Shown here in pieces: positions 3,610 to 64,000 of a stretch of 64,000 nt of DNA. The number at the start of each line of letters is the position of its first letter. Within the stretch, counting starts at the first letter, position 1. Location: the NCBI RefSeq assembly GCF_030013205.1, contig NZ_CP122648.1; one strand, written 5' to 3'. A program made the position numbers and the translations under genes. The notes beneath the pieces are model-generated. The model did no database searches, was not told the origin of the DNA, and saw only the letters and a program-made list of their open reading frames with translations. The DNA is from Escherichia coli. GTDB taxonomy: Bacteria; Pseudomonadota; Gammaproteobacteria; Enterobacterales; Enterobacteriaceae.

Positions 3610-3627
3610 TTTTTTTCGCGATTTTTC

Positions 3628-5843: not shown

Positions 5844-5870
5844 TGATGCACCTCACTTAAATGGACTTTA

Positions 5871-6610: not shown

Positions 6611-6803
6611 TCAGCAAGCAACAATGACAATTACCCTGAGTGCGCCAGATGATTTCACCGGACGCATACTGGTTTACCTGGATAAAGGAAAAGTGAAATC
6701 ACAATGCCGACTGAAAAGTAATGAGATTGTTGGTTCTCCTGAATTTTTTTCTGAACTCTGTATTCGTGCGGAAATAAAACCGGAACTGCTGACAGGAAAA
6801 TAA
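6603..6803 (+). CDS. Hypothetical protein (66 aa), single copy of the same repeat module
   Basis: FTGRILVYLDKGKV...GSPEFFSELCIRAEI; start overlaps the previous stop. Confidence 0.6.
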   Translation: MDNQQATMTITLSAPDDFTGRILVYLDKGKVKSQCRLKSNEIVGSPEFFSELCIRAEIKPELLTGK

Positions 6804-6807
6804 AACC

Positions 6808-7098
6808 ATGAAAAAGAAAAATTCTGGCTTTACTGCCAGCGGCCTCTCTCGGCCTGAAATCCGCCCCGGTGATATTTTCCGGGACACCAGACGCGGGGGA
6901 CGGGTGGTTATTCGTCACGTTACGCCAGGCAATATCACCTACCGCCGTGAGGCTTACGAATATGACTGCGTAATGCCGCGCCGTCAGTTTGATCGTGATT
7001 TTATTCTGGTGGAAAACAAACAACTGGCAGTGGCGAGACGTGCAGCCACGAATATTAAAAAAATCCGGGCAATGTTGGTTGCGGGAGGTAAGAAGTGA
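6808..7098 (+). CDS. Hypothetical basic protein (96 aa)
   Basis: ORF with stop overlapping the GTG start of the helicase gene (GTGA at 7095-7098). Confidence 0.5.
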   Translation: MKKKNSGFTASGLSRPEIRPGDIFRDTRRGGRVVIRHVTPGNITYRREAYEYDCVMPRRQFDRDFILVENKQLAVARRAATNIKKIRAMLVAGGKK

Positions 7099-16916: not shown

Positions 16917-18265
16917 ATGAATATCCGGCGAAAAAAATCACCATCAACCTTGCTCCAGCCGATCTGCCAAAAGAAGGGGGACGATATGATTTACCTATCG
17001 CCATTGCGTTGCTGGCGGCCTCAGAACAGCTTACAGCCAATAAATTAGATGAATATGAATTAGTCGGAGAACTGGCGCTTACAGGCGCTCTGCGTGGCGT
17101 TCCCGGCGCAATCTCCAGTGCAACTGAAGCTATTAAGTCGGGCAGAAAAATTATCGTCGCGAAAGATAACGAAGATGAAGTGGGGCTAATTAACGGTGAA
17201 GGATGCCTGATAGCCGATCATCTGCAGGCTGTCTGTGCGTTTCTGGAAGGTAAGCACGCTCTCGAACGCCCGAAACCAACTGATGCAGTATCCCGGGCAC
17301 AACAACATGATCTCAATGATGTTGTCGGTCAGGAGCAAGGAAAGCGAGGACTGGAAATTACCGCCGCTGGCGGGCACAACCTTTTACTGATTGGGCCGCC
17401 GGGAACAGGTAAAACAATGCTCGCCAGCCGTATTAATGGCCTGTTGCCAGATTTAAGCAATGAAGAGGCACTGGAGAGCGCGGCGATATTAAGTCTGGTA
17501 AATGCTGAATCAGTACAAAAACAATGGCGGCAGCGCCCGTTCCGCTCACCGCATCACAGTGCGTCGTTAACTGCGATGGTGGGCGGTGGTGCAATTCCAG
17601 GGCCAGGTGAAATTTCGCTGGCACATAACGGCGTGCTTTTTCTTGATGAGCTACCTGAATTTGAACGGCGTACACTGGATGCCTTGCGAGAGCCGATTGA
17701 ATCCGGGCAGATCCATCTTTCACGCACACGAGCAAAAATAACCTATCCAGCCCGTTTCCAACTTGTTGCGGCGATGAATCCCAGCCCTACCGGACATTAT
17801 CAGGGAAACCATAACCGCTGCACACCAGAACAGACATTACGTTATCTCAACCGGCTCTCGGGGCCCTTTCTCGACCGCTTCGATCTCTCACTGGAGATCC
17901 CATTACCGCCCCCCGGCATTTTGAGTAAAACGGTAGTGCCGGGAGAAAACAGCACCACCGTTAAACAACGCGTAATGGCCGCCAGAGAGCGCCAATTTAA
18001 GCGGCAGAATAAACTGAATGCCTGGCTGGATAGTCCGGAAATACGCCAATTCTGCAAGCTTGAGAGCGAAGATGCGCAGTGGCTGGAAGAAACGCTGATC
18101 CATCTGGGGTTATCGATTCGTGCCTGGCAGCGGTTACTGAAAGTAGCACGAACCATTGCTGATATTGATCAGTCCGACATTATCACACGTCAGCATTTGC
18201 AGGAGGCAGTTAGCTATCGTGCCATTGACCGTTTGCTCATCCATCTGCAAAAACTACTGACATAA
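16913..18265 (+). pseudogene. comM: comM (yifB) 3' portion, Mg-chelatase-like AAA+ ATPase, separated from its 5' end by the island
   Basis: In-frame continuation G(Y)EYPAKKITINLAPADLPKEGG...; Walker A LLIGPPGTGKTM; ends ...LIHLQKLLT. Confidence 0.85.
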
Positions 18266-18288
18266 AAAAGGGCATTTCGCCCTTTTTA
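18265..18288. terminator. Bidirectional intrinsic terminator between comM and maoP
   Basis: aaaaagggcatttcgccctttttatt hairpin with A/T runs on both sides. Confidence 0.6.
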
Positions 18289-18322
18289 TTAATCGTCAGA
18301 ATCGGTGTAGTCTTCAGCACCT

Positions 18323-18628
18323 TCAACCTGCGGTTTTACCGCCGGAAAGGGTGTGAAAACGTTTTGGACGCTTGATACGCGTCATATACTTGGACCACAC
18401 GCGTTCTGCTTCTGTCACTGGCTCACGTTCGCCACGGCATACTGCTACGAAGAGTTTCTCTTCCTCGGTAACCGGCTCGCGTTTGCCAAGATCCAACTCA
18501 TTGAAGGCATAACCATGACGCTCAAGCAGTTGTGCCTCTTTGATGGTGAAATCACCATGACGAGAGAATCCACGTGGATAATGTTTATTGTCGAAATATC
18601 GATTAGTCGTCGTAAAGCTTTCCGCCAT
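18323..18628 (-). CDS. maoP: MaoP (YifE), with an apparent C-terminal frameshift
   Basis: [21 protein letters not shown]...HTLSGGK then TAG-stop; the +1 frame encodes an acidic tail [14 protein letters not shown] ending at 18289. Confidence 0.8.
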
Positions 18629-18746
18629 CCTGCACGCTCCTAATTCTTTGACCGAGCTAGTTATGGCGCGGAGTATTAGTTACGCTTGACAGAGTGTAAA
18701 ACAAAACATTTAAATCATAACGACAAATAATTTTGCGGAGAGCACT

Positions 18747-19586
18747 GTGGATACGGAATTGTTAAAAACTTTCCTGGAAGTTAGCCGAACGCGTCACTTT
18801 GGTCGAGCAGCTGAATCGCTCTATCTGACCCAATCAGCCGTGAGCTTTCGAATCAGACAACTGGAAAATCAACTGGGTGTGAATCTTTTCACCCGCCACA
18901 GAAACAATATCCGTTTAACCGCTGCCGGTGAAAAACTACTGCCTTATGCAGAAACGCTCATGAGCACCTGGCAGGCCGCCCGTAAGGAGGTGGCGCATAC
19001 CTCACGACATAACGAGTTTTCTATCGGTGCCAGCGCCTCATTGTGGGAATGTATGCTTAATCAGTGGCTGGGACGTTTGTATAAAAATCAGGATGCCCAT
19101 ACAGGCTTACAGTTCGAAGCGCGAATTGCCCAACGGCAGTCTCTGGTAAAACAGCTGCATGAACGCCAGCTTGATCTTCTTATTACTACTGAAGCGCCCA
19201 AAATGGACGAATTTAGCAGTCAGTTGCTCGGGTATTTCACTTTAGCGCTTTATACCAGTGCCCCTTCCAAACTAAAGGGAGATCTTAACTATCTGCGACT
19301 GGAATGGGGGCCAGATTTTCAACAGCATGAGGCAGGTTTGATCGGTGCTGACGAAGTTCCCATTCTGACAACCAGTTCTGCTGAACTGGCACAGCAACAG
19401 ATTGCGACGCTTAATGGTTGCACCTGGCTACCCGTCAGTTGGGCGCGTAAAAAGGGCGGCCTGCATACCGTTGTCGATAGCACAACACTTTCACGGCCGC
19501 TTTATGCCATATGGCTGCAAAATAGCGATAAAAATGCGTTGATTCGCGATCTATTGAAAATTAACGTGCTGGATGAAGTGTATTAA
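18747..19586 (+). CDS. hdfR: LysR-family transcriptional regulator HdfR
   Basis: GTG start; [40 protein letters not shown] LysR HTH; 279 aa. Confidence 0.9.
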
Positions 19587-19646
19587 TCTGAATGGCTGGC
19601 AAGGATGCCGGTAGAAGGATTTACTTCTGAGAGGTTATTTCAGATA

Positions 19647-19672
19647 AAAAAAATCCTTAGCTTTCGCTAAGG
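19647..19672 (-). terminator. rrnC operon terminator
   Basis: atccttagctttcgctaaggat hairpin preceded by an A-run on the plus strand (U-run on minus). Confidence 0.6.
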
Positions 19673-19680
19673 ATGATTTC

Positions 19681-19756
19681 TGGCAGGGGCGGAGAGACTC
19701 GAACTCCCAACACCCGGTTTTGGAGACCGGTGCTCTACCAATTGAACTACGCCCCT
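19681..19756 (-). tRNA. trpT: tRNA-Trp
   Basis: Reverse complement reads AGGGGCGTAGTTCAATTGGTAGAGCACCGGTCTCCAAAACCGG...GCCCCTGCCA. Confidence 0.92.
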
Positions 19757-19764
19757 AATTAGGG

Positions 19765-19841
19765 TGGCGGAACGGACGGGACTCGAACCCGCGACCCCCT
19801 GCGTGACAGGCAGGTATTCTAACCGACTGAACTACCGCTCC
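19765..19841 (-). tRNA. aspT: tRNA-Asp
   Basis: Reverse complement reads GGAGCGGTAGTTCAGTCGGTTAGAATACCTGCCTGTCACGCAGG...CCGCCA. Confidence 0.92.
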
Positions 19842-19893
19842 ACCGAATTCTTTTACAACCACCGGTTTTATGACCGGCTTACTGCTTAATTTG

Positions 19894-20013
19894 ATGCCTG
19901 GCAGTTCCCTACTCTCGCATGGGGAGACCCCACACTACCATCGGCGCTACGGCGTTTCACTTCTGAGTTCGGCATGGGGTCAGGTGGGACCACCGCGCTA
20001 AGGCCGCCAGGCA
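19894..20013 (-). rRNA. rrfC: 5S ribosomal RNA
   Basis: 120 nt; reverse complement begins TGCCTGGCGGCC and ends AACTGCCAGGCAT. Confidence 0.92.
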
Positions 20014-20105
20014 AATTCTGTTTCATCAGACCGCTTCTGCGTTCTGATTTAATCTGTATCAGGCTGAAAATCTTCTCTCATCCGCCAAAACATCTTCGGC
20101 GTTGT

Positions 20106-23010
<2,905 letters not shown>

Positions 23011-45825: not shown

Positions 45826-46296
45826 GTGAATCTTAACGCAACAATCCTCGGCCAGGCCATCGCGTTTGTCCTGTTCGTTCTGTTCTGCATGAAGTACGTA
45901 TGGCCGCCATTAATGGCAGCCATCGAAAAACGTCAAAAAGAAATTGCTGACGGCCTTGCTTCCGCAGAACGAGCACATAAGGACCTTGACCTTGCAAAGG
46001 CCAGCGCGACCGACCAGCTGAAAAAAGCGAAAGCGGAAGCCCAGGTAATCATCGAGCAGGCTAACAAACGCCGCTCGCAGATTCTGGACGAAGCGAAAGC
46101 TGAGGCAGAACAGGAACGTACTAAAATCGTGGCCCAGGCGCAGGCGGAAATTGAAGCCGAGCGTAAACGTGCCCGTGAAGAGCTGCGTAAGCAAGTTGCT
46201 ATCCTGGCTGTTGCTGGCGCCGAGAAGATCATCGAACGTTCCGTGGATGAAGCTGCTAACAGCGACATCGTGGATAAACTTGTCGCTGAACTGTAA
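45826..46296 (+). CDS. atpF: F0F1 ATP synthase subunit b
   Basis: 156 aa; N-terminal TM helix then charged coiled coil. Confidence 0.9.
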
Positions 46297-46310
46297 GGAG
46301 GGAGGGGCTG

Positions 46311-46844
46311 ATGTCTGAATTTATTACGGTAGCTCGCCCCTACGCCAAAGCAGCTTTTGACTTTGCCGTCGAACACCAAAGTGTAGAACGCTGGCAGGAC
46401 ATGCTGGCGTTTGCCGCCGAGGTAACCAAAAACGAACAAATGGCAGAGCTTCTCTCTGGCGCGCTTGCGCCAGAAACGCTCGCCGAGTCGTTTATCGCAG
46501 TTTGTGGTGAGCAACTGGACGAAAACGGTCAGAACCTGATTCGGGTAATGGCCGAAAATGGTCGTCTTAACGCGCTCCCGGATGTTCTGGAGCAGTTTAT
46601 TCACCTGCGTGCCGTGAGTGAGGCTACCGCTGAGGTAGACGTCATTTCCGCTGCCGCATTGAGTGAACAACAGCTCGCGAAAATTTCTGCTGCGATGGAA
46701 AAACGTCTGTCACGCAAAGTTAAGCTGAATTGCAAAATCGATAAGTCTGTAATGGCAGGCGTTATCATCCGAGCGGGTGATATGGTCATTGATGGCAGCG
46801 TACGCGGTCGTCTTGAGCGCCTTGCAGACGTCTTGCAGTCTTAA
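46311..46844 (+). CDS. atpH: F0F1 ATP synthase subunit delta
   Basis: 177 aa; operon order. Confidence 0.9.
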
Positions 46845-46856
46845 GGGGACTGGAGC

Positions 46857-48398
46857 ATGCAACTGAATTCCACCGAAATCAGCGAACTGATCAAGCAGCG
46901 CATTGCTCAGTTCAATGTTGTGAGTGAAGCTCACAACGAAGGTACTATTGTTTCTGTAAGTGACGGTGTTATCCGCATCCACGGCCTGGCCGATTGTATG
47001 CAGGGTGAAATGATCTCCCTGCCGGGTAACCGTTACGCTATCGCACTGAACCTCGAGCGCGACTCTGTAGGTGCGGTTGTTATGGGTCCGTACGCTGACC
47101 TTGCCGAAGGCATGAAAGTTAAGTGTACTGGCCGTATCCTGGAAGTTCCGGTTGGCCGTGGCCTGCTGGGCCGTGTGGTTAACACTCTGGGTGCACCAAT
47201 CGATGGTAAAGGTCCGCTGGATCACGACGGCTTCTCTGCTGTAGAAGCAATCGCTCCGGGCGTTATCGAACGTCAGTCCGTAGATCAGCCGGTACAGACC
47301 GGTTATAAAGCCGTTGACTCCATGATCCCAATCGGTCGTGGTCAGCGTGAATTGATCATCGGTGACCGTCAGACCGGTAAAACCGCACTGGCTATCGATG
47401 CCATCATCAACCAGCGCGATTCCGGTATCAAATGTATCTATGTCGCTATCGGCCAGAAAGCGTCCACCATTTCTAACGTGGTACGTAAACTGGAAGAGCA
47501 CGGCGCACTGGCTAACACCATCGTTGTGGTAGCAACCGCGTCTGAATCCGCTGCACTGCAATACCTGGCACCGTACGCTGGTTGCGCAATGGGCGAATAC
47601 TTCCGTGACCGCGGTGAAGATGCGCTGATCATTTACGATGACCTGTCTAAACAGGCTGTTGCTTACCGTCAGATCTCCCTGCTGCTCCGTCGTCCGCCAG
47701 GACGTGAAGCATTCCCGGGCGACGTATTCTACCTCCACTCTCGTCTGCTGGAGCGTGCTGCGCGTGTTAACGCCGAATACGTTGAAGCCTTCACCAAAGG
47801 TGAAGTGAAAGGGAAAACCGGTTCTCTGACCGCGCTGCCGATTATCGAAACTCAGGCGGGTGACGTTTCTGCGTTCGTTCCAACCAACGTAATCTCCATT
47901 ACCGATGGTCAGATCTTCCTGGAAACCAACCTGTTCAACGCCGGTATTCGTCCTGCGGTTAACCCGGGTATTTCCGTATCCCGTGTTGGTGGTGCAGCAC
48001 AGACCAAGATCATGAAAAAACTGTCCGGTGGTATCCGTACCGCTCTGGCACAGTATCGTGAACTGGCAGCGTTCTCTCAGTTTGCATCCGACCTTGACGA
48101 TGCAACACGTAAGCAGCTTGACCACGGTCAGAAAGTGACCGAACTGCTGAAACAGAAACAGTATGCGCCGATGTCCGTAGCGCAACAGTCTCTGGTTCTG
48201 TTCGCAGCAGAACGTGGTTACCTGGCGGATGTTGAACTGTCGAAAATCGGCAGCTTCGAAGCCGCTCTGCTGGCTTACGTCGACCGTGATCACGCTCCGT
48301 TGATGCAAGAGATCAACCAGACCGGTGGCTACAACGACGAAATCGAAGGCAAGCTGAAAGGCATCCTCGATTCCTTCAAAGCAACCCAATCCTGGTAA
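46857..48398 (+). CDS. atpA: F0F1 ATP synthase subunit alpha
   Basis: 513 aa; Walker [10 protein letters not shown]. Confidence 0.9.
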
Positions 48399-48448
48399 CG
48401 TCTGGCGGCTTGCCTTAGGGCAGGCCGCAAGGCATTGAGGAGAAGCTC

Positions 48449-50721
<2,273 letters not shown>

Positions 50722-50741
50722 CGCCTTAATCGGAGGGTGAT

Positions 50742-51161
50742 ATGGCAATGACTTACCACCTGGACGTCGTCAGTGCAGAGCAACAAATGTTCTCTGGTCT
50801 GGTCGAGAAAATCCAGGTAACGGGTAGCGAAGGTGAACTGGGGATCTACCCTGGCCACGCACCGCTGCTCACCGCCATTAAGCCTGGTATGATTCGCATC
50901 GTGAAACAGCACGGTCACGAAGAGTTTATCTATCTGTCTGGCGGCATTCTTGAAGTGCAGCCTGGCAACGTGACCGTTCTGGCCGACACCGCAATTCGCG
51001 GCCAGGATCTCGACGAAGCGCGAGCCATGGAAGCGAAACGTAAGGCTGAAGAGCACATTAGCAGCTCTCACGGCGACGTAGATTACGCTCAGGCGTCTGC
51101 GGAACTGGCCAAAGCGATCGCGCAGCTGCGCGTTATCGAGTTGACCAAAAAAGCGATGTAA
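50742..51161 (+). CDS. atpC: F0F1 ATP synthase subunit epsilon
   Basis: 139 aa; operon order. Confidence 0.9.
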
Positions 51162-51180
51162 CACCGGCTTGAAAAGCACA

Positions 51181-51215
51181 AAAGCCAGTCTGGAAACAGG
51201 CTGGCTTTTTTTTAC
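51181..51215 (+). terminator. atp operon intrinsic terminator
   Basis: agccagtctggaaacaggctggc hairpin followed by a T run. Confidence 0.7.
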
Positions 51216-51511
51216 GCGTTGCCCCGTCCTGAATAGCGTTCACATAGATCCTGCTGATATAAAACACCCTGTTTTCCCGTTTATTCATTGATCGAAATAA
51301 GAGCAAAAACATCCACCTGACGCTTAAATGAAGGTATTGCCTTATTTTTCTGCAGACAAAAGGCGTGACGATGGTCGAAAATGGCGCTTTCGTCAGCGGG
51401 GATAATCCGTTATTGAACAATTTATCCTCTGTCCATTTCACGATGAAAAAAATGTAGTTTTTTCAAGGTGAAGCGGTTTAAATTCGTTCTCAAATTACAG
51501 TCAGGACGCGT

Positions 51512-52882
51512 ATGTTGAATAATGCTATGAGCGTAGTGATCCTTGCCGCAGGCAAAGGCACGCGCATGTATTCCGATCTTCCGAAAGTGCTGCATACCCT
51601 TGCCGGGAAAGCGATGGTTCAGCATGTCATTGATGCTGCGAATGAATTAGGCGCGGCGCACGTTCACCTGGTGTACGGTCACGGCGGCGATCTGCTTAAA
51701 CAGGCGCTGAAAGATGACAACCTGAACTGGGTGCTTCAGGCAGAACAGCTGGGTACAGGTCATGCGATGCAGCAGGCCGCACTTTTCTTTGCCGATGATG
51801 AAGACATTTTAATGCTCTACGGCGACGTGCCGCTGATCTCTGTCGAAACACTCCAGCGCCTGCGTGATGCTAAACCGCAGGGTGGCATTGGTCTGCTGAC
51901 GGTAAAACTGGATGATCCGACCGGTTATGGACGTATCACCCGTGAAAACGGCAAAGTTACCGGCATTGTTGAGCACAAAGACGCCACCGACGAGCAGCGT
52001 CAGATTCAGGAGATCAACACCGGCATTCTGATTGCCAACGGCGCAGATATGAAACGCTGGCTGGCGAAGCTGACCAACAATAACGCTCAGGGTGAATACT
52101 ACATCACCGACATTATTGCGCTGGCGTATCAGGAAGGGCGTGAAATCGTCGCCGTTCATCCGCAACGTTTAAGCGAAGTAGAAGGCGTGAATAACCGCCT
52201 GCAACTCTCCCGACTGGAGCGCGTTTACCAGTCCGAACAGGCTGAAAAACTGCTGTTAGCAGGCGTTATGCTGCGCGATCCGGCGCGTTTTGATCTGCGC
52301 GGTACGCTTACTCACGGGCGCGATGTTGAAATTGATACTAACGTTATCATCGAGGGCAACGTGACTCTCGGTCATCGCGTGAAAATCGGCACCGGTTGCG
52401 TGATTAAAAACAGCGTGATTGGCGATGATTGCGAAATTAGCCCGTATACCGTTGTGGAAGATGCGAATCTGGCAGCGGCCTGTACCATTGGCCCGTTTGC
52501 CCGTCTGCGTCCTGGTGCTGAGTTGCTGGAAGGTGCACACGTCGGTAACTTCGTTGAGATGAAAAAAGCGCGTCTGGGTAAAGGCTCGAAAGCTGGTCAT
52601 CTGACTTACCTGGGCGATGCGGAAATTGGCGATAACGTTAACATCGGCGCGGGAACCATTACCTGCAACTACGATGGTGCGAATAAATTTAAGACCATTA
52701 TCGGTGACGATGTGTTTGTCGGTTCCGACACTCAGCTGGTGGCCCCGGTTACAGTAGGCAAAGGCGCGACCATTGCTGCGGGTACAACTGTGACGCGTAA
52801 TGTCGGCGAAAACGCCCTGGCGATCAGCCGTGTGCCGCAGACTCAAAAAGAAGGCTGGCGTCGTCCGGTAAAGAAAAAGTAA
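51512..52882 (+). CDS. glmU: Bifunctional GlcNAc-1-P uridylyltransferase / GlcN-1-P acetyltransferase
   Basis: 456 aa; N-terminal LAAGKGTRM nucleotidyltransferase motif and C-terminal hexapeptide repeats. Confidence 0.9.
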
Positions 52883-53043
52883 TTCTGGCCGGGTAATACG
52901 GTCATATGGGATGAGGAGATAACATAATCTCCCGCCCACAAGCAGTAACTATAAAAATAACCCCACTCTCTACAAGGCTCGGGGCGCCCGAAAAAACGGG
53001 CATACAGGTTGACCGACAACGATATAAATCGGAATCAAAAACT

Positions 53044-54873
53044 ATGTGTGGAATTGTTGGCGCGATCGCGCAACGTGATGTAGCAGAAATCCTTCTTGAA
53101 GGTTTACGTCGTCTTGAATACCGCGGATATGACTCTGCCGGTCTGGCCGTTGTTGATGCAGAAGGTCATATGACCCGCCTGCGTCGCCTCGGTAAAGTCC
53201 AGATGCTGGCTCAGGCAGCGGAAGAACATCCTCTGCATGGCGGCACCGGTATTGCTCATACTCGCTGGGCGACCCACGGTGAACCTTCAGAAGCTAACGC
53301 GCATCCGCATGTTTCTGAACACATTGTGGTGGTGCATAACGGCATCATCGAAAACCATGAACCGCTGCGTGAAGAGTTAAAAGCGCGTGGCTATACCTTC
53401 GTTTCTGAAACCGACACCGAAGTGATTGCCCATCTGGTGAACTGGGAGCTGAAACAAGGCGGTACTCTGCGTGAGGCTGTTCTGCGTGCTATCCCGCAAC
53501 TGCGTGGTGCGTACGGTACAGTGATCATGGACTCCCGTCACCCGGATACCCTGCTGGCGGCACGTTCTGGTAGCCCGCTGGTGATTGGTCTGGGCATGGG
53601 CGAAAACTTTATCGCTTCTGACCAGCTGGCGCTGTTGCCAGTGACCCGTCGCTTTATCTTCCTTGAAGAGGGCGATATTGCGGAAATCACTCGCCGTTCG
53701 GTAAACATCTTCGATAAAACTGGCGCGGAAGTAAAACGTCAGGATATCGAATCCAATCTGCAATATGACGCGGGCGATAAAGGTATTTACCGCCACTACA
53801 TGCAGAAAGAGATCTACGAACAACCGAACGCGATCAAAAACACCCTTACCGGGCGCATCAGCCACGGTCAGGTTGATTTAAGCGAGCTGGGACCGAACGC
53901 CGACGAACTGCTGTCGAAGGTTGAGCATATTCAGATCCTCGCCTGTGGTACTTCTTATAACTCCGGTATGGTTTCCCGCTACTGGTTTGAATCGCTGGCA
54001 GGTCTTCCGTGCGACGTCGAAATCGCCTCTGAATTCCGCTATCGCAAATCTGCCGTGCGCCGTAACAGCCTGATGATCACCTTGTCACAGTCTGGCGAAA
54101 CCGCGGATACCCTGGCTGGCCTGCGTCTGTCAAAAGAGCTGGGTTACCTTGGTTCACTGGCAATCTGTAACGTTCCGGGTTCTTCTCTGGTGCGCGAATC
54201 CGATCTGGCGCTGATGACCAATGCCGGTACGGAAATTGGCGTGGCGTCCACTAAAGCATTCACCACTCAGTTAACTGTGCTGTTGATGCTGGTGGCGAAG
54301 CTGTCTCGTCTGAAAGGTCTGGATGCCTCCATTGAACATGACATCGTGCATGGTCTGCAGGCGCTGCCGAGCCGTATTGAGCAGATGCTGTCTCAGGACA
54401 AACGCATTGAAGCGCTGGCAGAAGATTTCTCTGACAAACATCACGCACTGTTCCTGGGCCGTGGCGATCAGTACCCAATCGCGCTGGAAGGCGCATTGAA
54501 GCTGAAAGAGATCTCTTACATTCACGCTGAAGCCTACGCTGCAGGCGAACTGAAACACGGTCCGCTGGCGCTGATTGATGCCGATATGCCGGTTATCGTC
54601 GTTGCACCGAACAACGAATTGCTGGAAAAACTGAAATCCAACATTGAAGAAGTTCGCGCGCGTGGCGGTCAGTTGTATGTCTTCGCCGATCAGGATGCGG
54701 GTTTTGTAAGTAGCGATAACATGCACATCATCGAGATGCCGCATGTGGAAGAGGTGATTGCACCGATCTTCTACACTGTTCCGCTGCAACTACTGGCTTA
54801 CCACGTTGCGCTGATCAAAGGCACCGACGTTGACCAGCCGCGTAACCTGGCGAAATCGGTTACGGTTGAGTAA
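53044..54873 (+). CDS. glmS: Glutamine--fructose-6-phosphate aminotransferase
   Basis: 609 aa; MCGIVGAI N-terminal nucleophile; C-terminus ...NLAKSVTVE; the 3' end is the TnsD recognition region for attTn7. Confidence 0.9.
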
Positions 54874-54898
54874 TATCTCTCGTTGATAGAAAAGGGCT

Positions 54899-55032
54899 TG
54901 TGGGCGGACAATAAAGTCTTAAACTGAACAAAATAGATCTAAACTATGACAATAAAGTCTTAAACTAGACAGAATAGTTGTAAACTGAAATCAGTCCAGT
55001 TATGCTGTGAAAAAGCATACTGGACTTTTGTT
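54899..55032. repeat. Tn7 right end (Tn7-R) with multiple ~22-bp TnsB-binding repeats
   Basis: Repeated gacaataaagtcttaaactgaa / gacaataaagtcttaaactaga / cagaatagttgtaaactgaaat motifs. Confidence 0.8.
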
Positions 55033-55854
55033 ATGGCTAAAGCAAACTCTTCATTTTCTGAAGTGCAAATTGCCCGTCGTATTAAAGAGGGGCGTGGCCA
55101 AGGGCATGGTAAAGACTATATTCCATGGCTAACAGTACAAGAAGTTCCTTCTTCAGGTCGTTCCCACCGTATTTATTCTCATAAGACGGGACGAGTCCAT
55201 CATTTGCTATCTGACTTAGAGCTTGCTGTTTTTCTCAGTCTTGAGTGGGAGAGCAGCGTGCTAGATATACGCGAGCAGTTCCCCTTATTACCTAGTGATA
55301 CCAGGCAGATTGCAATAGATAGTGGTATTAAGCATCCTGTTATTCGTGGTGTAGATCAGGTTATGTCTACTGATTTTTTAGTGGACTGCAAAGATGGTCC
55401 TTTTGAGCAGTTTGCTATTCAAGTCAAACCTGCAGCAGCCTTACAAGACGAGCGTACCTTAGAAAAACTAGAACTAGAGCGTCGCTATTGGCAGCAAAAG
55501 CAAATTCCTTGGTTCATTTTTACTGATAAAGAAATAAATCCCGTAGTAAAAGAAAATATTGAATGGCTTTATTCAGTGAAAACAGAAGAAGTTTCTGCGG
55601 AGCTTTTAGCACAACTATCCCCATTGGCCCATATCCTGCAAGAAAAAGGAGATGAAAACATTATCAATGTCTGTAAGCAGGTTGATATTGCTTATGATTT
55701 GGAGTTAGGCAAAACATTGAGTGAGATACGAGCCTTAACCGCAAATGGTTTTATTAAGTTCAATATTTATAAGTCTTTCAGGGCAAATAAGTGTGCAGAT
55801 CTCTGTATTAGCCAAGTAGTGAATATGGAGGAGTTGCGCTATGTGGCAAATTAA
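55033..55854 (+). CDS. tnsA: Tn7 transposase subunit TnsA (endonuclease-like)
   Basis: 273 aa; MAKANSSFSEVQIARRIKEGRGQGHGKDYIPWLTVQEVPS. Confidence 0.9.
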   Translation: MAKANSSFSEVQIARRIKEGRGQGHGKDYIPWLTVQEVPSSGRSHRIYSHKTGRVHHLLSDLELAVFLSLEWESSVLDIREQFPLLPSDTRQIAIDSGIKHPVIRGVDQVMSTDFLVDCKDGPFEQFAIQVKPAAALQDERTLEKLELERRYWQQKQIPWFIFTDKEINPVVKENIEWLYSVKTEEVSAELLAQLSPLAHILQEKGDENIINVCKQVDIAYDLELGKTLSEIRALTANGFIKFNIYKSFRANKCADLCISQVVNMEELRYVAN

Positions 55855-57949
55855 TGAGGTTGTGCTATTTGATAATGATCCGTATCGCATTTTGGCTATA
55901 GAGGATGGCCAAGTTGTCTGGATGCAAATAAGCGCTGATAAAGGAGTTCCACAAGCTAGGGCTGAGTTGTTGCTAATGCAGTATTTAGATGAAGGCCGCT
56001 TAGTTAGAACTGATGACCCTTATGTACATCTTGATTTAGAAGAGCCGTCTGTAGATTCTGTCAGCTTCCAGAAGCGCGAGGAGGATTATCGAAAAATTCT
56101 TCCTATTATTAATAGTAAGGATCGTTTCGACCCTAAAGTCAGAAGCGAACTCGTTGAGCATGTGGTCCAAGAACATAAGGTTACTAAGGCTACAGTTTAT
56201 AAGTTGTTACGCCGTTACTGGCAGCGTGGTCAAACGCCTAATGCATTAATTCCTGACTACAAAAACAGCGGTGCACCAGGGGAAAGACGTTCAGCGACAG
56301 GAACAGCAAAGATTGGCCGAGCCAGAGAATATGGTAAGGGTGAAGGAACCAAGGTAACGCCCGAGATTGAACGCCTTTTTAGGTTGACCATAGAAAAGCA
56401 CCTGTTAAATCAAAAAGGTACAAAGACCACCGTTGCCTATAGACGATTTGTGGACTTGTTTGCTCAGTATTTTCCTCGCATTCCCCAAGAGGATTACCCA
56501 ACACTACGTCAGTTTCGTTATTTTTATGATCGAGAATACCCTAAAGCTCAGCGCTTAAAGTCTAGAGTTAAAGCAGGGGTATATAAAAAAGACGTACGAC
56601 CCTTAAGTAGTACAGCCACTTCTCAGGCGTTAGGCCCTGGGAGTCGTTATGAGATTGATGCCACGATTGCTGATATTTATTTAGTGGATCATCATGATCG
56701 CCAAAAAATCATAGGAAGACCAACGCTTTACATTGTGATTGATGTGTTTAGTCGGATGATCACGGGCTTTTATATCGGCTTTGAAAATCCGTCTTATGTG
56801 GTGGCGATGCAGGCTTTTGTAAATGCTTGCTCTGACAAAACGGCCATTTGTGCCCAGCATGATATTGAGATTAGTAGCTCAGACTGGCCGTGTGTAGGTT
56901 TGCCAGATGTGTTGCTAGCGGACCGTGGCGAATTAATGAGTCATCAGGTCGAAGCCTTAGTTTCTAGTTTTAATGTGCGAGTGGAAAGTGCTCCACCTAG
57001 ACGTGGCGATGCTAAAGGCATAGTGGAAAGCACTTTTAGAACACTACAAGCCGAGTTTAAGTCCTTTGCACCTGGCATTGTAGAGGGCAGTCGGATCAAA
57101 AGCCATGGTGAAACAGACTATAGGTTAGATGCATCTCTGTCGGTATTTGAGTTCACACAAATTATTTTGCGTACGATCTTATTCAGAAATAACCATCTGG
57201 TGATGGATAAATACGATCGAGATGCTGATTTTCCTACAGATTTACCGTCTATTCCTGTCCAGCTATGGCAATGGGGTATGCAGCATCGTACAGGTAGTTT
57301 AAGGGCTGTGGAGCAAGAGCAGTTGCGAGTAGCGTTACTGCCTCGCCGAAAGGTCTCTATTTCTTCATTTGGCGTTAATTTGTGGGGTTTGTATTACTCG
57401 GGGTCAGAGATTCTGCGTGAGGGTTGGTTGCAGCGGAGCACTGATATAGCTAGACCTCAACATTTAGAAGCGGCTTATGACCCAGTGCTGGTTGATACGA
57501 TTTATTTGTTTCCGCAAGTTGGCAGCCGTGTATTTTGGCGCTGTAATCTGACGGAACGTAGTCGGCAGTTTAAAGGTCTCTCATTTTGGGAGGTTTGGGA
57601 TATACAAGCACAAGAAAAACACAATAAAGCCAATGCGAAGCAGGATGAGTTAACTAAACGCAGGGAGCTTGAGGCGTTTATTCAGCAAACCATTCAGAAA
57701 GCGAATAAGTTAACGCCCAGTACTACTGAGCCCAAATCAACACGCATTAAGCAGATTAAAACTAATAAAAAAGAAGCCGTGACCTCGGAGCGTAAAAAAC
57801 GTGCGGAGCATTTGAAGCCAAGCTCTTCAGGTGATGAGGCTAAAGTTATTCCTTTCAACGCAGTGGAAGCGGATGATCAAGAAGATTACAGCCTACCCAC
57901 ATACGTGCCTGAATTATTTCAGGATCCACCAGAAAAGGATGAGTCATGA
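55841..57949 (+). CDS. tnsB: Tn7 transposase subunit TnsB (DDE transposase)
   Basis: 702 aa; overlaps the tnsA 3' end; central DDE/RNase-H-like region. Confidence 0.9.
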
Positions 57950-59613
57950 GTGCTACCCGGATTCAAGCAGTTTATCGTGATACGGGGGTAGAGGCTTATC
58001 GTGATAATCCTTTTATCGAGGCCTTACCACCATTACAAGAGTCAGTGAATAGTGCTGCATCACTGAAATCCTCTTTACAGCTTACTTCCTCTGACTTGCA
58101 AAAGTCCCGTGTTATCAGAGCTCATACCATTTGTCGTATTCCAGATGACTATTTTCAGCCATTAGGTACGCATTTGCTACTAAGTGAGCGTATTTCGGTC
58201 ATGATTCGAGGTGGCTACGTAGGCAGAAATCCTAAAACAGGAGATTTACAAAAGCATTTACAAAATGGTTATGAGCGTGTTCAAACGGGAGAGTTGGAGA
58301 CATTTCGCTTTGAGGAGGCACGATCTACGGCACAAAGCTTATTGTTAATTGGTTGTTCTGGTAGTGGGAAGACGACCTCTCTTCATCGTATTCTAGCCAC
58401 GTATCCTCAGGTGATTTACCATCGTGAACTCAATGTAGAGCAGGTGGTGTATTTGAAAATAGACTGCTCGCATAATGGTTCGCTAAAAGAAATCTGCTTG
58501 AATTTTTTCAGAGCGTTGGATCGAGCCTTGGGCTCGAACTATGAGCGTCGTTATGGCTTAAAACGTCATGGTATAGAAACCATGTTGGCTTTGATGTCGC
58601 AAATAGCCAATGCACATGCTTTAGGGTTGTTGGTTATTGATGAAATTCAGCATTTAAGCCGCTCTCGTTCGGGTGGATCTCAAGAGATGCTGAACTTTTT
58701 TGTGACGATGGTGAATATTATTGGCGTACCAGTGATGTTGATTGGTACCCCTAAAGCACGAGAGATTTTTGAGGCTGATTTGCGGTCTGCACGTAGAGGG
58801 GCAGGGTTTGGAGCTATATTCTGGGATCCTATACAACAAACGCAACGTGGAAAGCCCAATCAAGAGTGGATCGCTTTTACGGATAATCTTTGGCAATTAC
58901 AGCTTTTACAACGCAAAGATGCGCTGTTATCGGATGAGGTCCGTGATGTGTGGTATGAGCTAAGCCAAGGAGTGATGGACATTGTAGTAAAACTTTTTGT
59001 ACTCGCTCAGCTCCGTGCGCTAGCTTTAGGCAATGAGCGTATTACCGCTGGTTTATTGCGGCAAGTGTATCAAGATGAGTTAAAGCCTGTGCACCCCATG
59101 CTAGAGGCATTACGCTCGGGTATCCCAGAACGCATTGCTCGTTATTCTGATCTAGTCGTTCCCGAGATTGATAAACGGTTAATCCAACTTCAGCTAGATA
59201 TCGCAGCGATACAAGAACAAACACCAGAAGAAAAAGCCCTTCAAGAGTTAGATACCGAAGATCAGCGTCATTTATATCTGATGCTGAAAGAGGATTACGA
59301 TTCAAGCCTGTTAATTCCCACTATTAAAAAAGCGTTTAGCCAGAATCCAACGATGACAAGACAAAAGTTACTGCCTCTTGTTTTGCAGTGGTTGATGGAA
59401 GGCGAAACGGTAGTGTCAGAACTAGAAAAGCCCTCCAAGAGTAAAAAGGTTTCGGCTATAAAGGTAGTCAAGCCCAGCGACTGGGATAGCTTGCCTGATA
59501 CGGATTTACGTTATATCTATTCACAACGCCAACCTGAAAAAACCATGCATGAACGGTTAAAAGGGAAAGGGGTAATAGTGGATATGGCGAGCTTATTTAA
59601 ACAAGCAGGTTAG
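57946..59613 (+). CDS. tnsC: Tn7 transposition regulator TnsC (AAA+ ATPase)
   Basis: 555 aa; Walker [11 protein letters not shown]; ATGA overlap with tnsB. Confidence 0.9.
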
Positions 59614-59615
59614 CC

Positions 59616-61142
59616 ATGAGAAACTTTCCTGTTCCGTACTCGAATGAGCTGATTTATAGCACTATTGCACGGGCAGGCGTTTATCAAGGGATTGTTAGTC
59701 CTAAGCAGCTGTTGGATGAGGTGTATGGCAACCGCAAGGTGGTCGCTACCTTAGGTCTGCCCTCGCATTTAGGTGTGATAGCAAGACATCTACATCAAAC
59801 AGGACGTTACGCTGTTCAGCAGCTTATTTATGAGCATACCTTATTCCCTTTATATGCTCCGTTTGTAGGCAAGGAGCGCCGAGACGAAGCTATTCGGTTA
59901 ATGGAGTACCAAGCGCAAGGTGCGGTGCATTTAATGCTAGGAGTCGCTGCTTCTAGAGTTAAGAGCGATAACCGCTTTAGATACTGCCCTGATTGCGTTG
60001 CTCTTCAGCTAAATAGGTATGGGGAAGCCTTTTGGCAACGAGATTGGTATTTGCCCGCTTTGCCATATTGTCCAAAACACGGTGCTTTAGTCTTCTTTGA
60101 TAGAGCTGTAGATGATCACCGACATCAATTTTGGGCTTTGGGTCATACTGAGCTGCTTTCAGACTACCCCAAAGACTCCCTATCTCAATTAACAGCACTA
60201 GCTGCTTATATAGCCCCTCTGTTAGATGCTCCACGAGCGCAAGAGCTTTCCCCAAGCCTTGAGCAGTGGACGCTGTTTTATCAGCGCTTAGCGCAGGATC
60301 TAGGGCTAACCAAAAGCAAGCACATTCGTCATGACTTGGTGGCGGAGAGAGTGAGGCAGACTTTTAGTGATGAGGCACTAGAGAAACTGGATTTAAAGTT
60401 GGCAGAGAACAAGGACACGTGTTGGCTGAAAAGTATATTCCGTAAGCATAGAAAAGCCTTTAGTTATTTACAGCATAGTATTGTGTGGCAAGCCTTATTG
60501 CCAAAACTAACGGTTATAGAAGCGCTACAGCAGGCAAGTGCTCTTACTGAGCACTCTATAACGACAAGACCTGTTAGCCAGTCTGTGCAACCTAACTCTG
60601 AAGATTTATCTGTTAAGCATAAAGACTGGCAGCAACTAGTGCATAAATACCAAGGAATTAAGGCGGCAAGACAGTCTTTAGAGGGTGGGGTGCTATACGC
60701 TTGGCTTTACCGACATGACAGGGATTGGCTAGTTCACTGGAATCAACAGCATCAACAAGAGCGTCTGGCACCCGCCCCTAGAGTTGATTGGAACCAAAGA
60801 GATCGAATTGCTGTACGACAACTATTAAGAATCATAAAGCGTCTAGATAGTAGCCTTGATCACCCAAGAGCGACATCGAGCTGGCTGTTAAAGCAAACTC
60901 CTAACGGAACCTCTCTTGCAAAAAATCTACAGAAACTGCCTTTGGTAGCGCTTTGCTTAAAGCGTTACTCAGAGAGTGTGGAAGATTATCAAATTAGACG
61001 GATTAGCCAAGCTTTTATTAAGCTTAAACAGGAAGATGTTGAGCTTAGGCGCTGGCGATTATTAAGAAGTGCAACGTTATCTAAAGAGCGGATAACTGAG
61101 GAAGCACAAAGATTCTTGGAAATGGTTTATGGGGAAGAGTGA
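59616..61142 (+). CDS. tnsD: Tn7 target-site selector TnsD (attTn7/glmS recognition)
   Basis: 508 aa; MRNFPVPYSNELIYSTIARAG; Cys/His zinc-finger-like CPDC...CPKHG. Confidence 0.9.
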   Translation: MRNFPVPYSNELIYSTIARAGVYQGIVSPKQLLDEVYGNRKVVATLGLPSHLGVIARHLHQTGRYAVQQLIYEHTLFPLYAPFVGKERRDEAIRLMEYQAQGAVHLMLGVAASRVKSDNRFRYCPDCVALQLNRYGEAFWQRDWYLPALPYCPKHGALVFFDRAVDDHRHQFWALGHTELLSDYPKDSLSQLTALAAYIAPLLDAPRAQELSPSLEQWTLFYQRLAQDLGLTKSKHIRHDLVAERVRQTFSDEALEKLDLKLAENKDTCWLKSIFRKHRKAFSYLQHSIVWQALLPKLTVIEALQQASALTEHSITTRPVSQSVQPNSEDLSVKHKDWQQLVHKYQGIKAARQSLEGGVLYAWLYRHDRDWLVHWNQQHQQERLAPAPRVDWNQRDRIAVRQLLRIIKRLDSSLDHPRATSSWLLKQTPNGTSLAKNLQKLPLVALCLKRYSESVEDYQIRRISQAFIKLKQEDVELRRWRLLRSATLSKERITEEAQRFLEMVYGEE

Positions 61143-62759
61143 GTGGTTAGGCTAGCTACATTTAATGACAATGTGCAGGTTGTACATATTGGTCATTTAT
61201 TCCGTAACTCGGGTCATAAGGAGTGGCGTATTTTTGTTTGGTTTAATCCAATGCAAGAACGGAAATGGACTCGATTTACTCATTTGCCTTTATTAAGTCG
61301 AGCTAAGGTGGTTAACAGTACAACAAAGCAAATAAATAAGGCGGATCGTGTGATTGAGTTTGAAGCATCGGATCTTCAACGAGCCAAAATAATCGATTTT
61401 CCTAATCTCTCGTCCTTTGCTTCCGTACGCAACAAGGATGGAGCGCAGAGTTCATTTATTTACGAAGCTGAAACACCATATAGCAAGACTCGTTATCACA
61501 TCCCACAGTTAGAGCTAGCTCGGTCATTATTTTTAATTAACTCCTATTTCTGTCGAAGCTGTTTGAGCAGTACCGCTTTACAGCAAGAGTTCGACGTTCA
61601 GTATGAGGTTGAGCGAGATCATTTAGAGATAAGGATCTTACCCAGTTCATCGTTTCCTAAAGGGGCGTTAGAGCAGTCGGCCGTAGTGCAGCTTTTGGTT
61701 TGGTTGTTTTCGGATCAAGATGTTATGGATTCGTATGAAAGTATTTTTAGGCACTATCAACAAAATAGAGAAATTAAGAACGGCGTTGAAAGCTGGTGCT
61801 TTAGCTTTGACCCTCCGCCCATGCAGGGTTGGAAATTACATGTAAAAGGACGTTCTTCTAACGAGGATAAGGATTATTTAGTTGAGGAAATAGTAGGTTT
61901 AGAAATCAACGCTATGCTTCCTAGCACAACAGCTATTAGCCATGCCTCTTTTCAGGAAAAGGAGGCAGGTGATGGTAGTACGCAGCACATAGCGGTTTCA
62001 ACAGAGTCAGTTGTTGATGATGAGCATCTACAGTTGGACGATGAGGAAACAGCCAATATAGACACAGACACACGAGTCATAGAGGCTGAGCCGACATGGA
62101 TAAGTTTTAGTAGACCTAGTCGAATTGAAAAATCTCGCAGGGCAAGAAAAAGTAGCCAAACTATTTTAGAAAAAGAAGAAGCAACAACAAGTGAAAATAG
62201 TAATTTGGTTAGTACTGATGAGCCACACTTAGGTGGTGTCCTAGCAGCGGCAGATGTGGGTGGGAAGCAGGATGCAACCAATTACAACTCTATTTTTGCT
62301 AATCGATTTGCTGCTTTTGATGAGCTACTTTCAATTCTAAAAACTAAATTTGCATGTCGGGTGCTTTTTGAAGAAACCTTGGTTTTGCCAAAAGTTGGGC
62401 GTAGCCGATTACATCTGTGTAAAGATGGCTCACCAAGAGTGATTAAAGCCGTTGGGGTGCAACGTAATGGCAGTGAATTTGTATTGCTAGAGGTGGATGC
62501 ATCGGATGGGGTGAAAATGCTTTCTACCAAAGTGTTGAGTGGCGTTGATAGCGAAACATGGCGGAATGATTTTGAAAAGATACGGCGTGGAGTGGTGAAG
62601 AGCTCATTGAATTGGCCAAATAGTTTGTTTGATCAATTATATGGACAAGACGGGCATAGAGGGGTGAATCATCCAAAGGGGTTGGGGGAGCTGCAAGTAT
62701 CGAGAGAGGATATGGAAGGGTGGGCTGAGAGAGTGGTTAGAGAGCAATTTACGCATTAA
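61143..62759 (+). CDS. tnsE: Tn7 alternative target selector TnsE
   Basis: 538 aa; GTG start immediately after the tnsD stop. Confidence 0.85.
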   Translation: MVRLATFNDNVQVVHIGHLFRNSGHKEWRIFVWFNPMQERKWTRFTHLPLLSRAKVVNSTTKQINKADRVIEFEASDLQRAKIIDFPNLSSFASVRNKDGAQSSFIYEAETPYSKTRYHIPQLELARSLFLINSYFCRSCLSSTALQQEFDVQYEVERDHLEIRILPSSSFPKGALEQSAVVQLLVWLFSDQDVMDSYESIFRHYQQNREIKNGVESWCFSFDPPPMQGWKLHVKGRSSNEDKDYLVEEIVGLEINAMLPSTTAISHASFQEKEAGDGSTQHIAVSTESVVDDEHLQLDDEETANIDTDTRVIEAEPTWISFSRPSRIEKSRRARKSSQTILEKEEATTSENSNLVSTDEPHLGGVLAAADVGGKQDATNYNSIFANRFAAFDELLSILKTKFACRVLFEETLVLPKVGRSRLHLCKDGSPRVIKAVGVQRNGSEFVLLEVDASDGVKMLSTKVLSGVDSETWRNDFEKIRRGVVKSSLNWPNSLFDQLYGQDGHRGVNHPKGLGELQVSREDMEGWAERVVREQFTH

Positions 62760-62989
62760 AGGAATGACTGAAAGAGCCTGTAAACCCTTTTGTGTAAGTG
62801 CTTTTGCCGGTCAGTTAAAGGTGGCCATTTAAACGGTCACCAAATTCGATCATAAAACGGTTCATGGCCGGCTTCCAGTTGCGGATCGGCATCGTCCATT
62901 TCTTGGTCGCCGCCTGGATAGCCAGGTACACCACCTTCATCGCTGATTCGTCCGTAGGGAACACCTTGAGTTCATATTAATGGAATTTT

Positions 62990-63367
62990 CTACAAATAGC
63001 CTCCGTGGTTTTGAGGGGGGATTACAGACGATCCATAGTAGTAATCCAATGAGTTCTTGAGCGCGGCGACATGTTTGGACGCCTTGGCAAAAATTAGAGC
63101 CTGCTTGAAGTGCAGGCGAGCACGTGCTTGGACGATTGATCCATTCGCGGTCAAAAACTCAATCTTGGATGACAGCGTGTCAGGAAATCCAATATCGAAG
63201 TCCCGCCCCGTGTCAAAGTAGGGCATTTCATGATCAAAGGACGAAGCTTCCCAGGCCACTTCCCTAATATTCCAGCCGCTAGAAACAAGATTTCGTACGA
63301 CTTCATCAACTTTTTTGCTTTCCAACTTGTCACAAAGTGCATAGGCAAGAGCTTTGGCGGCAGACAC
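62990..63367 (-). CDS. Tn7-borne hypothetical protein (125 aa), convergent to tnsE
   Basis: GTG start with AAGAGGA SD; position matches the Tn7 backbone genes between tnsE and the cassette region. Confidence 0.5.
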   Translation of the reverse strand: MSAAKALAYALCDKLESKKVDEVVRNLVSSGWNIREVAWEASSFDHEMPYFDTGRDFDIGFPDTLSSKIEFLTANGSIVQARARLHFKQALIFAKASKHVAALKNSLDYYYGSSVIPPQNHGGYL

Positions 63368-63420
63368 GTGCGTTTCCTCTTAAACATAGGTCGAACGGAT
63401 ACCCGAGGCAAAGCGGAGCA

Positions 63421-63744
63421 TTAGTCCCAAAGCATCTCCGGTAGATCCGGAGGCTCCATACTGAAGGCATGGCATCTTGGGCATTGATATTTGAAACTTC
63501 TCTCTAGATAGCAGGGATTTCTTGGCCTTGCCTCATGCTGATAGCTTGTAAATATCACACGATCCTTAGCCCCACAAAGTGAGCATACTCCGTAGCTTTC
63601 ATTTATAGAAATCGTCGTTAGATTGTCGCAGCATGTGCACGTTCCGACTATTTGCTCAGGAAGCATCGCCATACCTTGGCCTAGGTAAAGAAGATCAGAC
63701 TCGTAGCCACATCGGTGGCAACTGAGCTTGTACGCAATGCCCAT
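63421..63744 (-). CDS. Tn7-borne Cys-rich (zinc-ribbon-like) hypothetical protein (107 aa)
   Basis: CHRCGYE...CTCC...CSLCG...CPRCH cysteine pairs; GGTGAGA SD. Confidence 0.5.
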   Translation of the reverse strand: MGIAYKLSCHRCGYESDLLYLGQGMAMLPEQIVGTCTCCDNLTTISINESYGVCSLCGAKDRVIFTSYQHEARPRNPCYLERSFKYQCPRCHAFSMEPPDLPEMLWD

Positions 63745-63776
63745 CTGGTTGTCTCACCTGAATCGTAACGTCAGAG

Positions 63777-64000
63777 CTATTCATCCATCCATTCGGCATC
63801 AATGTATGCCACTAAGCCGACCAGCTGACCGTTTGGACTGAAGTATGTTGCCTGCACCCCACTTGACATCTCATCAATACCACCGCACTGCGCTAGGCGC
63901 CGGTCCCACTTGCCCACAGAAGCGTCAGGATCGGCTGAGTTCCCCAAGACCCTTGTGAGCCATGCCTCCTTTAACTCAACCTCTCGAATGATTGCGTCGG
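63777..64000 (-). CDS. Tn7-borne hypothetical protein, 3' end only (ORF enters from beyond window end)
   Basis: Minus-strand frame open from 64000 down to TAG at 63777-63779; C-terminus ...GQLVGLVAYIDAEWMDE. Confidence 0.4.
   Translation of the reverse strand, partial: DAIIREVELKEAWLTRVLGNSADPDASVGKWDRRLAQCGGIDEMSSGVQATYFSPNGQLVGLVAYIDAEWMDE

Follow-up and report, generated by a model that had tools for sequence, protein, structure and literature searches.

Introduction

The attTn7 pathway of transposon Tn7 is among the best-characterised transposition systems. Insertion of Tn7 in the terminator of glmS was reportedly described in a paper of 1986. The numbering of attTn7, its 36-bp minimal site and the CCCH zinc-finger residues of the target selector TnsD were defined in PMC2918618, according to which 90 bp of the right end of the element (Tn7-R) are enough for transposition. 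A Tn7 of 14,067 bp resides in the IncI2 plasmid R721 (NC_002525.1), flanked by the duplication CGCAC. The array estX-sat2-aadA1, a known class 2 integron array of pig and human isolates, is found in the Tn7 that occupies attTn7 in Escherichia coli YZ22PE67 (NZ_CP171874.1). Here, a 64-kb stretch of E. coli DNA (the window) was analyzed. Positions 54899-64000 are almost certainly the right-hand 9.1 kb of a prototype Tn7 that occupies attTn7 in the chromosome of a porcine-type E. coli. As an occupant of attTn7, this Tn7 is already known and ordinary.

Results

Identity and extent of the element

The 9,102 bp between position 54899 and the end of the window showed no mismatch to the Tn7 of plasmid R721, in a stretch that comprises Tn7-R, tnsA-E and the first cargo ORFs. 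Because 9,102 of 9,102 bases are identical, the identity with Tn7 is far beyond chance. Protein accessions are also the same for both elements, which differ in location, that of R721 lying in a plasmid and that of the window in chromosomal attTn7. The part of Tn7 inside the window is intact, and the window held no evidence against a Tn7 at attTn7. A preliminary description had delimited the element at 54874 and 62759. The former is the first base after glmS, Tn7 itself beginning 25 bp further on, and the latter is only the stop of tnsE; the transposon goes on, 100% identical to the reference, to position 64000. Visible in the window are the Tn7-R end, the genes tnsABCDE and the first part of the cargo (Table 1).

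Table 1. Features of the glmS-Tn7 region, in window coordinates; functions of the tns products are those predicted by identity with Tn7
Feature	Position	Strand	Remarks
glmS, 609 aa	53044..54873	+	ORF; annotated glmS in near-identical record; stop TAA 54871-54873
Putative TnsD-binding segment of attTn7	54838..54873	+	CCGCGTAACCTGGCGAAATCGGTTACGGTTGAGTAA; positions +23 to +58 relative to the midpoint of the target duplication
Spacer from glmS stop to Tn7-R, 25 bp	54874..54898	+	last 5 bp GGGCT (54894-54898)
Tn7-R end	54899..54989	+	terminal 8 bp TGTGGGCG at 54899-54906, then four contiguous TnsB-binding repeats of ~22 bp
tnsA, 273 aa	55033..55854	+	predicted endonuclease half of the heteromeric transposase, 5'-end cleavage
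tnsB, 702 aa	55841..57949	+	predicted DDE transposase: would bind the element ends, cleave 3' ends and join them to the target
tnsC, 555 aa	57946..59613	+	predicted AAA+ ATPase adaptor between target selector and transposase
tnsD, 508 aa	59616..61142	+	predicted sequence-specific target selector for attTn7
tnsE, 538 aa	61143..62759	+	GTG start; predicted to select replicating (conjugal) DNA as target
Internal non-transposition part of Tn7, cut by window end	62760..64000		0 mismatches to R721 Tn7
IS256-family transposase fragment	~62815-62967	-	PGAP call
Hypothetical ORF, 125 aa	62990-63367	-	annotation
Next hypothetical ORF, start only	from ~63777	-	annotation

The tns genes read inward from Tn7-R in the order tnsA-tnsB-tnsC-tnsD-tnsE, and PGAP made the same ORF calls in the near-identical record of pig strain ETEC4079 (see below) and in R721. 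The lengths previously given for the five products were all reproduced in the ORFs of the window. Their junctions had been described as overlapping, which holds for tnsA/tnsB (14 nt) and tnsB/tnsC (4 nt, ATGA), whereas tnsC and tnsD are separated by a 2-nt gap and tnsD and tnsE abut. In the cargo, the 125-aa ORF had no significant match to a Pfam or NCBIfam family.

The Tns proteins

Against NCBIfam, the five Tns proteins and two ORFs of the cargo gave sub-threshold hits only (IS481 for TnsB and Orc1/Cdc6 for TnsC), an uninformative outcome, and PDB and RefSeq protein identity was used instead. TnsA matched PDB entries 1f1z/1t0f ('TnsA endonuclease') over its full length with 610 bits, and residues 1-702 of TnsB matched 7pik ('Transposon Tn7 transposition protein TnsB') with 1604 bits. 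TnsC matched 8glu/7mbw through residues 1-504 and 1t0f_C through residues 503-555, all of them named 'Tn7 TnsC', residues 1-318 of TnsD matched 8glu_X ('Tn7 TnsD') with 725 bits, and residues 342-538 of TnsE matched 5d17/5d16/9d5l ('Tn7 TnsE'). Bit scores against these Tn7 chains were at identity level and the matches spanned the full solved lengths. The TnsE accession WP_000251879.1 is common to R721 and ETEC4079. Residues E63, D114 and K132 of TnsA and D273, D361 and E396 of TnsB, the catalytic ones according to the Tn7 literature, are in place, as are the CCCH zinc-finger residues C124, C127, C152 and H155 of TnsD; TnsC carries the Walker A motif GCSGSGKT at residues 136-143.

The likeness to classical Tn7 that had been put forward is borne out at both levels, the DNA being identical to that of R721 Tn7 and the proteins matching the PDB chains of Tn7 TnsA-E. 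Divergent Tns proteins, named earlier as the mark of some other transposon, were looked for and those of the window are not divergent. An element of this kind, a different member of the Tn7 family with diverged Tns proteins at the same glmS site, would have company in the relatives at 80-95% identity that occur in E. coli and on plasmids. It is nevertheless scarcely conceivable here in view of 0 mismatches to Tn7 in 9,102 bp, protein accessions identical to those of R721 and identity-level PDB scores, and it was rejected on account of the DNA identity with Tn7, the identity counts refuting it.

The insertion site and the right end

The glmS gene is more than 95% identical in 5424 of 5426 E. 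coli genomes, and its 3' end bears the recognition sequence of the Tn7 attachment site. Tn7-R lies proximal to glmS, in a specific orientation and at a fixed distance downstream. The earlier claims that Tn7 sits at attTn7 downstream of glmS and that Tn7-R starts 25 bp past the stop codon both held, position and orientation of the site fitting TnsD-directed insertion. Since Tn7-R faces glmS at this distance from the stop, the published TnsD site at +23 to +58 coincides exactly with the last 36 bp of glmS; these coordinates were computed with the numbering and minimal site of PMC2918618, and binding of TnsD to the segment is predicted. The GGGCT that ends the spacer probably represents the glmS-proximal copy of the target duplication as well as the left arm of the split hairpin of the glmS terminator. 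In the Tn7-free sister strain K_EC180, the flank is the same and the empty site contains GGGCT once, inside the terminator hairpin, which folding predicted at -25.8 kcal/mol (z = -5.9) and which is followed by a T-run. A repeat-family search placed the starts of the predicted TnsB-binding repeats at 54907, 54927, 54948 and 54968; the longer terminal sequence TGTGGGCGGACAATAAAG begins at 54899, and the whole Tn7-R segment in the window is identical to the right end of R721 Tn7.

By steps that are established for Tn7, and that this identity suggests for the element of the window, TnsD would bind the conserved end of glmS and recruit the AAA+ adaptor TnsC, which would activate the TnsA+TnsB transposase bound to the element ends. 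Excised Tn7 would then insert with Tn7-R on the glmS side, at a constant distance from the TnsD site, which would create the 5-bp duplication GGGCT and place the start of Tn7-R 25 bp after the stop codon; such an insertion would leave glmS intact and split its terminator hairpin. TnsE would serve an alternative pathway into conjugating plasmids.

Host strain and prevalence

Apart from one 1-bp indel, the whole window is the same as the corresponding DNA of the pig ETEC strain ETEC4079 (NZ_CP122643.1, Belgium). This difference lies at window position 18334, in a T-run of maoP far from Tn7, and may be either a true frameshift or a homopolymer error; positions 45874-64000 are identical. In the flanks, identity to pig ETEC genomes amounts to 100%. 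No publication on ETEC4079 was retrieved from the literature. The att repeats of an unrelated yifB island were also looked for, and only a 14-nt repeat, not convincing, was obtained. At least 80% of a 25-kb query across the glmS-Tn7 junction was covered in 82 of the 5426 E. coli genomes, and Tn7 is thus found at attTn7 in ~1.5% of complete genomes of the species; at 100% the query retrieved ETEC4079 as the only genome.

The source had been supposed to be a natural or clinical isolate or an engineered strain, and the flanks, together with the near-identity to ETEC4079, argue for a natural isolate. An engineered mini-Tn7 in a laboratory strain could be thought of, attTn7 being the standard site for mini-Tn7 tagging and one MG1655 derivative of the collection containing a Tn7-L-like match. 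To our knowledge, mini-Tn7 vectors hold the element ends only. The window, however, contains the entire tnsABCDE operon along with native sequence from the interior of Tn7, and the flanks are those of field isolates of pig ETEC, the lpf-O113 operon lying downstream. A mini-Tn7 is therefore an extremely remote prospect; the full tns operon and the native cargo refute it, and it was rejected.

The left part of the element in ETEC4079

The left end, the second duplication copy and the integron lie outside the window, and what is said of them derives from ETEC4079, a genome one indel away, whose Tn7 has the same insertion point and spacer as that of the window and no difference inside the element. 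Beyond the window, Tn7 is most likely the same as in this strain, where a variant of 13,621 bp carries a class 2 integron and ends in a diverged Tn7-L terminus. A left end within ~14 kb and a 5-bp target duplication, both suggested beforehand as checks, were found in ETEC4079, where Tn7-L lies 13.6 kb from the right end and GGGCT stands at both ends of the element, the second copy after Tn7-L. For the complete element in the source genome of the window, Tn7-L ~13.6 kb from 54899, then GGGCT and GCCGACCGGCGGCCCTTTTTT, would be expected.

A class 2 integron had been anticipated in the unseen left part. That of ETEC4079 contains intI2 (with an internal stop), sat2 and aadA1; dfrA1, also expected, is absent, and its place is taken by an internally deleted estX cassette in which 821 bp, most of estX, are gone. 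By comparison with YZ22PE67, attI2/intI2 and sat2-aadA1 are 99-100% identical, and the estX deletion and a different Tn7-L terminus distinguish ETEC4079. Over its last ~120 bp, Tn7-L of ETEC4079 diverges from the prototype by 19 substitutions and 1 indel. Its terminal octamer is TGTAGACG instead of the prototype TGTGGGCG, with TGT...ACA kept, and the three TnsB sites are there, two of them with one substitution each. A left end of this type was not found in any PLSDB plasmid or in any other of the 5426 complete E. coli genomes. The 20-mer at its terminus is also present in the ends of Tn7-family elements of Alcaligenaceae and Methylophaga.

The term 'canonical', used in the preliminary description, is hence apt for the visible 9.1 kb, but the left 2.8 kb depart from prototype Tn7 in the near-identical genome, which compared with R721 Tn7 is without dfrA1 and diverged in Tn7-L. 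That the whole element should, as the term implied, be a fully canonical Tn7 of 14,067 bp that has the prototype Tn7-L and the array intI2-dfrA1-sat2-aadA1 is improbable. The identity of the visible 9,102 bp to the prototype is consistent with it, most E. coli copies have a prototype-type left end, and 108 records are 90-95% identical to the ETEC4079 variant, the band in which the prototype-type YZ22PE67 scores; however, the sole 100% match to the 25-kb query is ETEC4079, whose variant lacks dfrA1 and diverges at the left terminus. For an element that continues as in ETEC4079, present-day mobility as a whole is not guaranteed, because this left terminus differs from the prototype. Tentatively, and with rather more doubt than confidence, the ETEC4079 element may be read as a mosaic in which prototype Tn7, with a deleted estX-type integron, makes up the right 13.5 kb and the outermost ~120 bp of Tn7-L come from another Tn7 relative.

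Discussion

This copy adds nothing to the understanding of Tn7. For annotation, the strain is marked as a field isolate of the pig ETEC type that has a Tn7 in its chromosome, most likely with a class 2 integron. The integron probably confers resistance to streptothricin and, provided that aadA1 is truly intact, to streptomycin/spectinomycin, and trimethoprim resistance from this Tn7 is probably absent. Mildly useful, and outside the window, are two features of ETEC4079, its deviating left terminus and its estX cassette with the deletion. If the mosaic reading were true, it would point to a natural exchange of ends between Tn7 relatives, for example by homologous recombination of successive occupants of attTn7, and would provide a natural test of the left-end variation that is tolerated by TnsB.

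Results

The preliminary description had placed a canonical Tn7 at 54874-62759, its right terminus 25 bp beyond the glmS stop codon. The Tn7-R terminus TGTGGGCGGACAATAAAG starts at 54899, leaving exactly 25 bp (54874-54898) between it and the stop. When 54874-64000 was used as a megablast query, the prototype Tn7 of plasmid R721 (NC_002525.1) aligned from query base 26, equivalent to window position 54899, and direct comparison gave 0 mismatches over 9,102 bp. Assignment to classical Tn7, with Tns proteins that are not divergent, was therefore borne out by BLAST. The same identity means that the element does not end at 62759 and extends to the end of the window. R721 Tn7 measures 14,067 bp; its ends read TGTGGGCGGACA... 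and ...TGTCCGCCCACA, and its 5-bp duplication is CGCAC.

Features of the window (the yifB and integrase rows follow the PGAP annotation of the near-identical ETEC4079 record)
Feature	Position	Strand	Remarks
yifB N-terminal fragment	~2032-2205		
Tyrosine integrase of the island	~2380-3609		
yifB C-terminal fragment	~16901-18265		
glmS	53044-54873		609-aa ORF, stop TAA 54871-54873
tnsA	55033-55854	same as other tns	273 aa
tnsB	55841-57949	same as other tns	702 aa
tnsC	57946-59613	same as other tns	555 aa
tnsD	59616-61142	same as other tns	508 aa
tnsE	61143-62759	same as other tns	538 aa, GTG start
IS256-family transposase fragment (PGAP)	62815-62967	minus	short, shortly after tnsE

The five tns ORFs have the lengths originally proposed, and their coordinates are identical in the PGAP annotation of the matching public record, that of the pig ETEC strain ETEC4079. 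Overlapping junctions had also been described; this holds for tnsA/tnsB (14 nt) and tnsB/tnsC (4 nt) and fails for tnsC/tnsD, separated by 2 nt, and tnsD/tnsE, which abut. All five proteins matched Tn7 chains over their full solved lengths with identity-level scores: TnsA (1f1z, 1t0f), TnsB (7pik), TnsC (8glu, 7mbw, 1t0f_C), TnsD (8glu_X) and TnsE (5d17, 5d16, 9d5l). In the translated proteins, the functional residues TnsA E63, D114 and K132 and TnsB D273, D361 and E396 are all in place. The Walker A motif of TnsC occupies residues 136-143, and TnsD retains C124, C127, C152 and H155, a zinc finger defined by experiment (PMC2918618). Inward of the terminal octamer, four contiguous repeats of ~22 bp (54907, 54927, 54948 and 54968) form the Tn7-R array of TnsB-binding sites. 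The IS256-family fragment is invariant Tn7 sequence, present in R721 too.

With attTn7 numbered from the centre of the duplication (0), the TnsD site spans +23 to +58 (PMC2918618). Applied here, this numbering puts the glmS-side duplication copy, GGGCT, at 54894-54898 and the predicted TnsD site at 54838-54873, exactly the final 36 bp of glmS, stop included. Tn7-R is oriented towards glmS, as TnsD-directed insertion requires. Many other Tn7-bearing E. coli have a different spacer, their matches starting at query base 1, 2, 7, 12 or 25/26; such variation fits the published irrelevance of the sequence at the insertion point (PMC2918618). The insertion distance is the same despite the differing 25-bp spacer (54874-54898). 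Downstream of glmS this lineage carries the lpf-O113 fimbrial operon, rather than pstS directly.

Flank 48000-54898 is E. coli sequence, 100% identical to many pig isolates. A junction-spanning 25-kb query found 100% identity in a single complete genome, that of ETEC4079 (NZ_CP122643.1), which comes from pig faeces in Belgium; the genome ranked second reached 99.8%. Base by base, 45874-64000 is identical to ETEC4079, and the remainder of the window differs by one 1-bp indel at 18334. This additional T in a T-run, the sole difference over 64 kb, shifts the frame at the maoP C-terminus (101 aa instead of 112 aa) and could be a homopolymer sequencing error. Among 5426 complete E. coli genomes, Tn7 DNA was present in 115 and the glmS-Tn7 junction, counted at a coverage of at least 80% of the 25-kb query, in 82 (about 1.5%).

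A left end within 14 kb and a 5-bp target duplication had been anticipated, and both were found in the near-identical genome ETEC4079. There the element measures 13,621 bp (9026-22646 of the ETEC4079 stretch L001) and its left junction reads ...TTTTGTCCGTCTACA|GGGCT|GCCGACCGGCGGCCCTTTTTT, so that GGGCT stands at both ends. The Tn7-free sister strain K_EC180, 100% identical in the flank, has an empty site, ...GAAAAGGGCTGCCGACCGGCGGCCCTTTTTT, with one GGGCT only. On folding, this site forms a hairpin of 16 bp with a U-run behind it (-25.8 kcal/mol, z = -5.9), which indicates that Tn7 insertion splits the glmS terminator; a passage of PMC2918618 cites the classical description of such splitting in K-12.

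The left part of the ETEC4079 element is not fully canonical. Counted from the right end, it equals R721 Tn7 over roughly the first 11,270 positions, bar one substitution at 10,683. The class 2 integron suspected there is present as regards intI2, with its usual internal stop, sat2 and aadA1, but the dfrA1 cassette of R721 Tn7 is missing. In its place, 112 bp (L001 20307-20418) represent both ends of a first cassette, estX, whose interior has lost 821 bp when set against the estX-sat2-aadA1 Tn7 of E. coli YZ22PE67; sat2 and then aadA1 follow. The estX-sat2-aadA1 array is a known one for class 2 integrons. PGAP calls aadA1 frameshifted in both ETEC4079 and YZ22PE67.

The final ~120 bp of Tn7-L (L001 22527-22646) differ from the prototype by 19 substitutions and 1 indel, with terminus TGTAGACG versus TGTGGGCG in R721, and a single substitution is present in each of two of the three left-end TnsB sites. 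Of the 5426 E. coli genomes, ETEC4079 alone had this variant end at 99% identity or more, and no PLSDB plasmid contained it over its full length. Its terminal 20-mer was found in five genomes of other species (Paenalcaligenes, uncultured Alcaligenaceae, Methylophaga), whose Tn7-family ends show ~90% identity to the variant and ~85% to the prototype. Such a mosaic element could have formed before it inserted, or could reflect recombination between successive attTn7 occupants; either history would leave the same duplication, because TnsD always sets the element at the same position.

Elsewhere in the window, an integrase-bearing island of ~14.7 kb (~2205-16900; GC 48.6% versus 51.3% for the backbone) interrupts yifB/comM. 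PGAP annotation of ETEC4079 adds an AntA/AntB antirepressor and Icd-like, RepA-family helicase, ProQ/FinO, PerC, NUDIX, DUF2213 and lytic transglycosylase genes. A repeat search found only the 14-nt TTGTTCCACGTTGT, at 2299 and 16779.

Discussion

The element and the site it occupies are both already known, and the preliminary interpretation is supported. The window itself displays the sequence identity, position, orientation, intact genes and right end of Tn7; the duplication and the empty site were observed in near-identical genomes. By the mechanism established for Tn7, and judging from sequence identity, TnsD would bind the 3' end of glmS and recruit TnsC, which would activate the TnsA+TnsB transposase; the transposase would then insert the element by cut and paste, generating a 5-bp duplication, and TnsE would provide an alternative route into replicating conjugal DNA.
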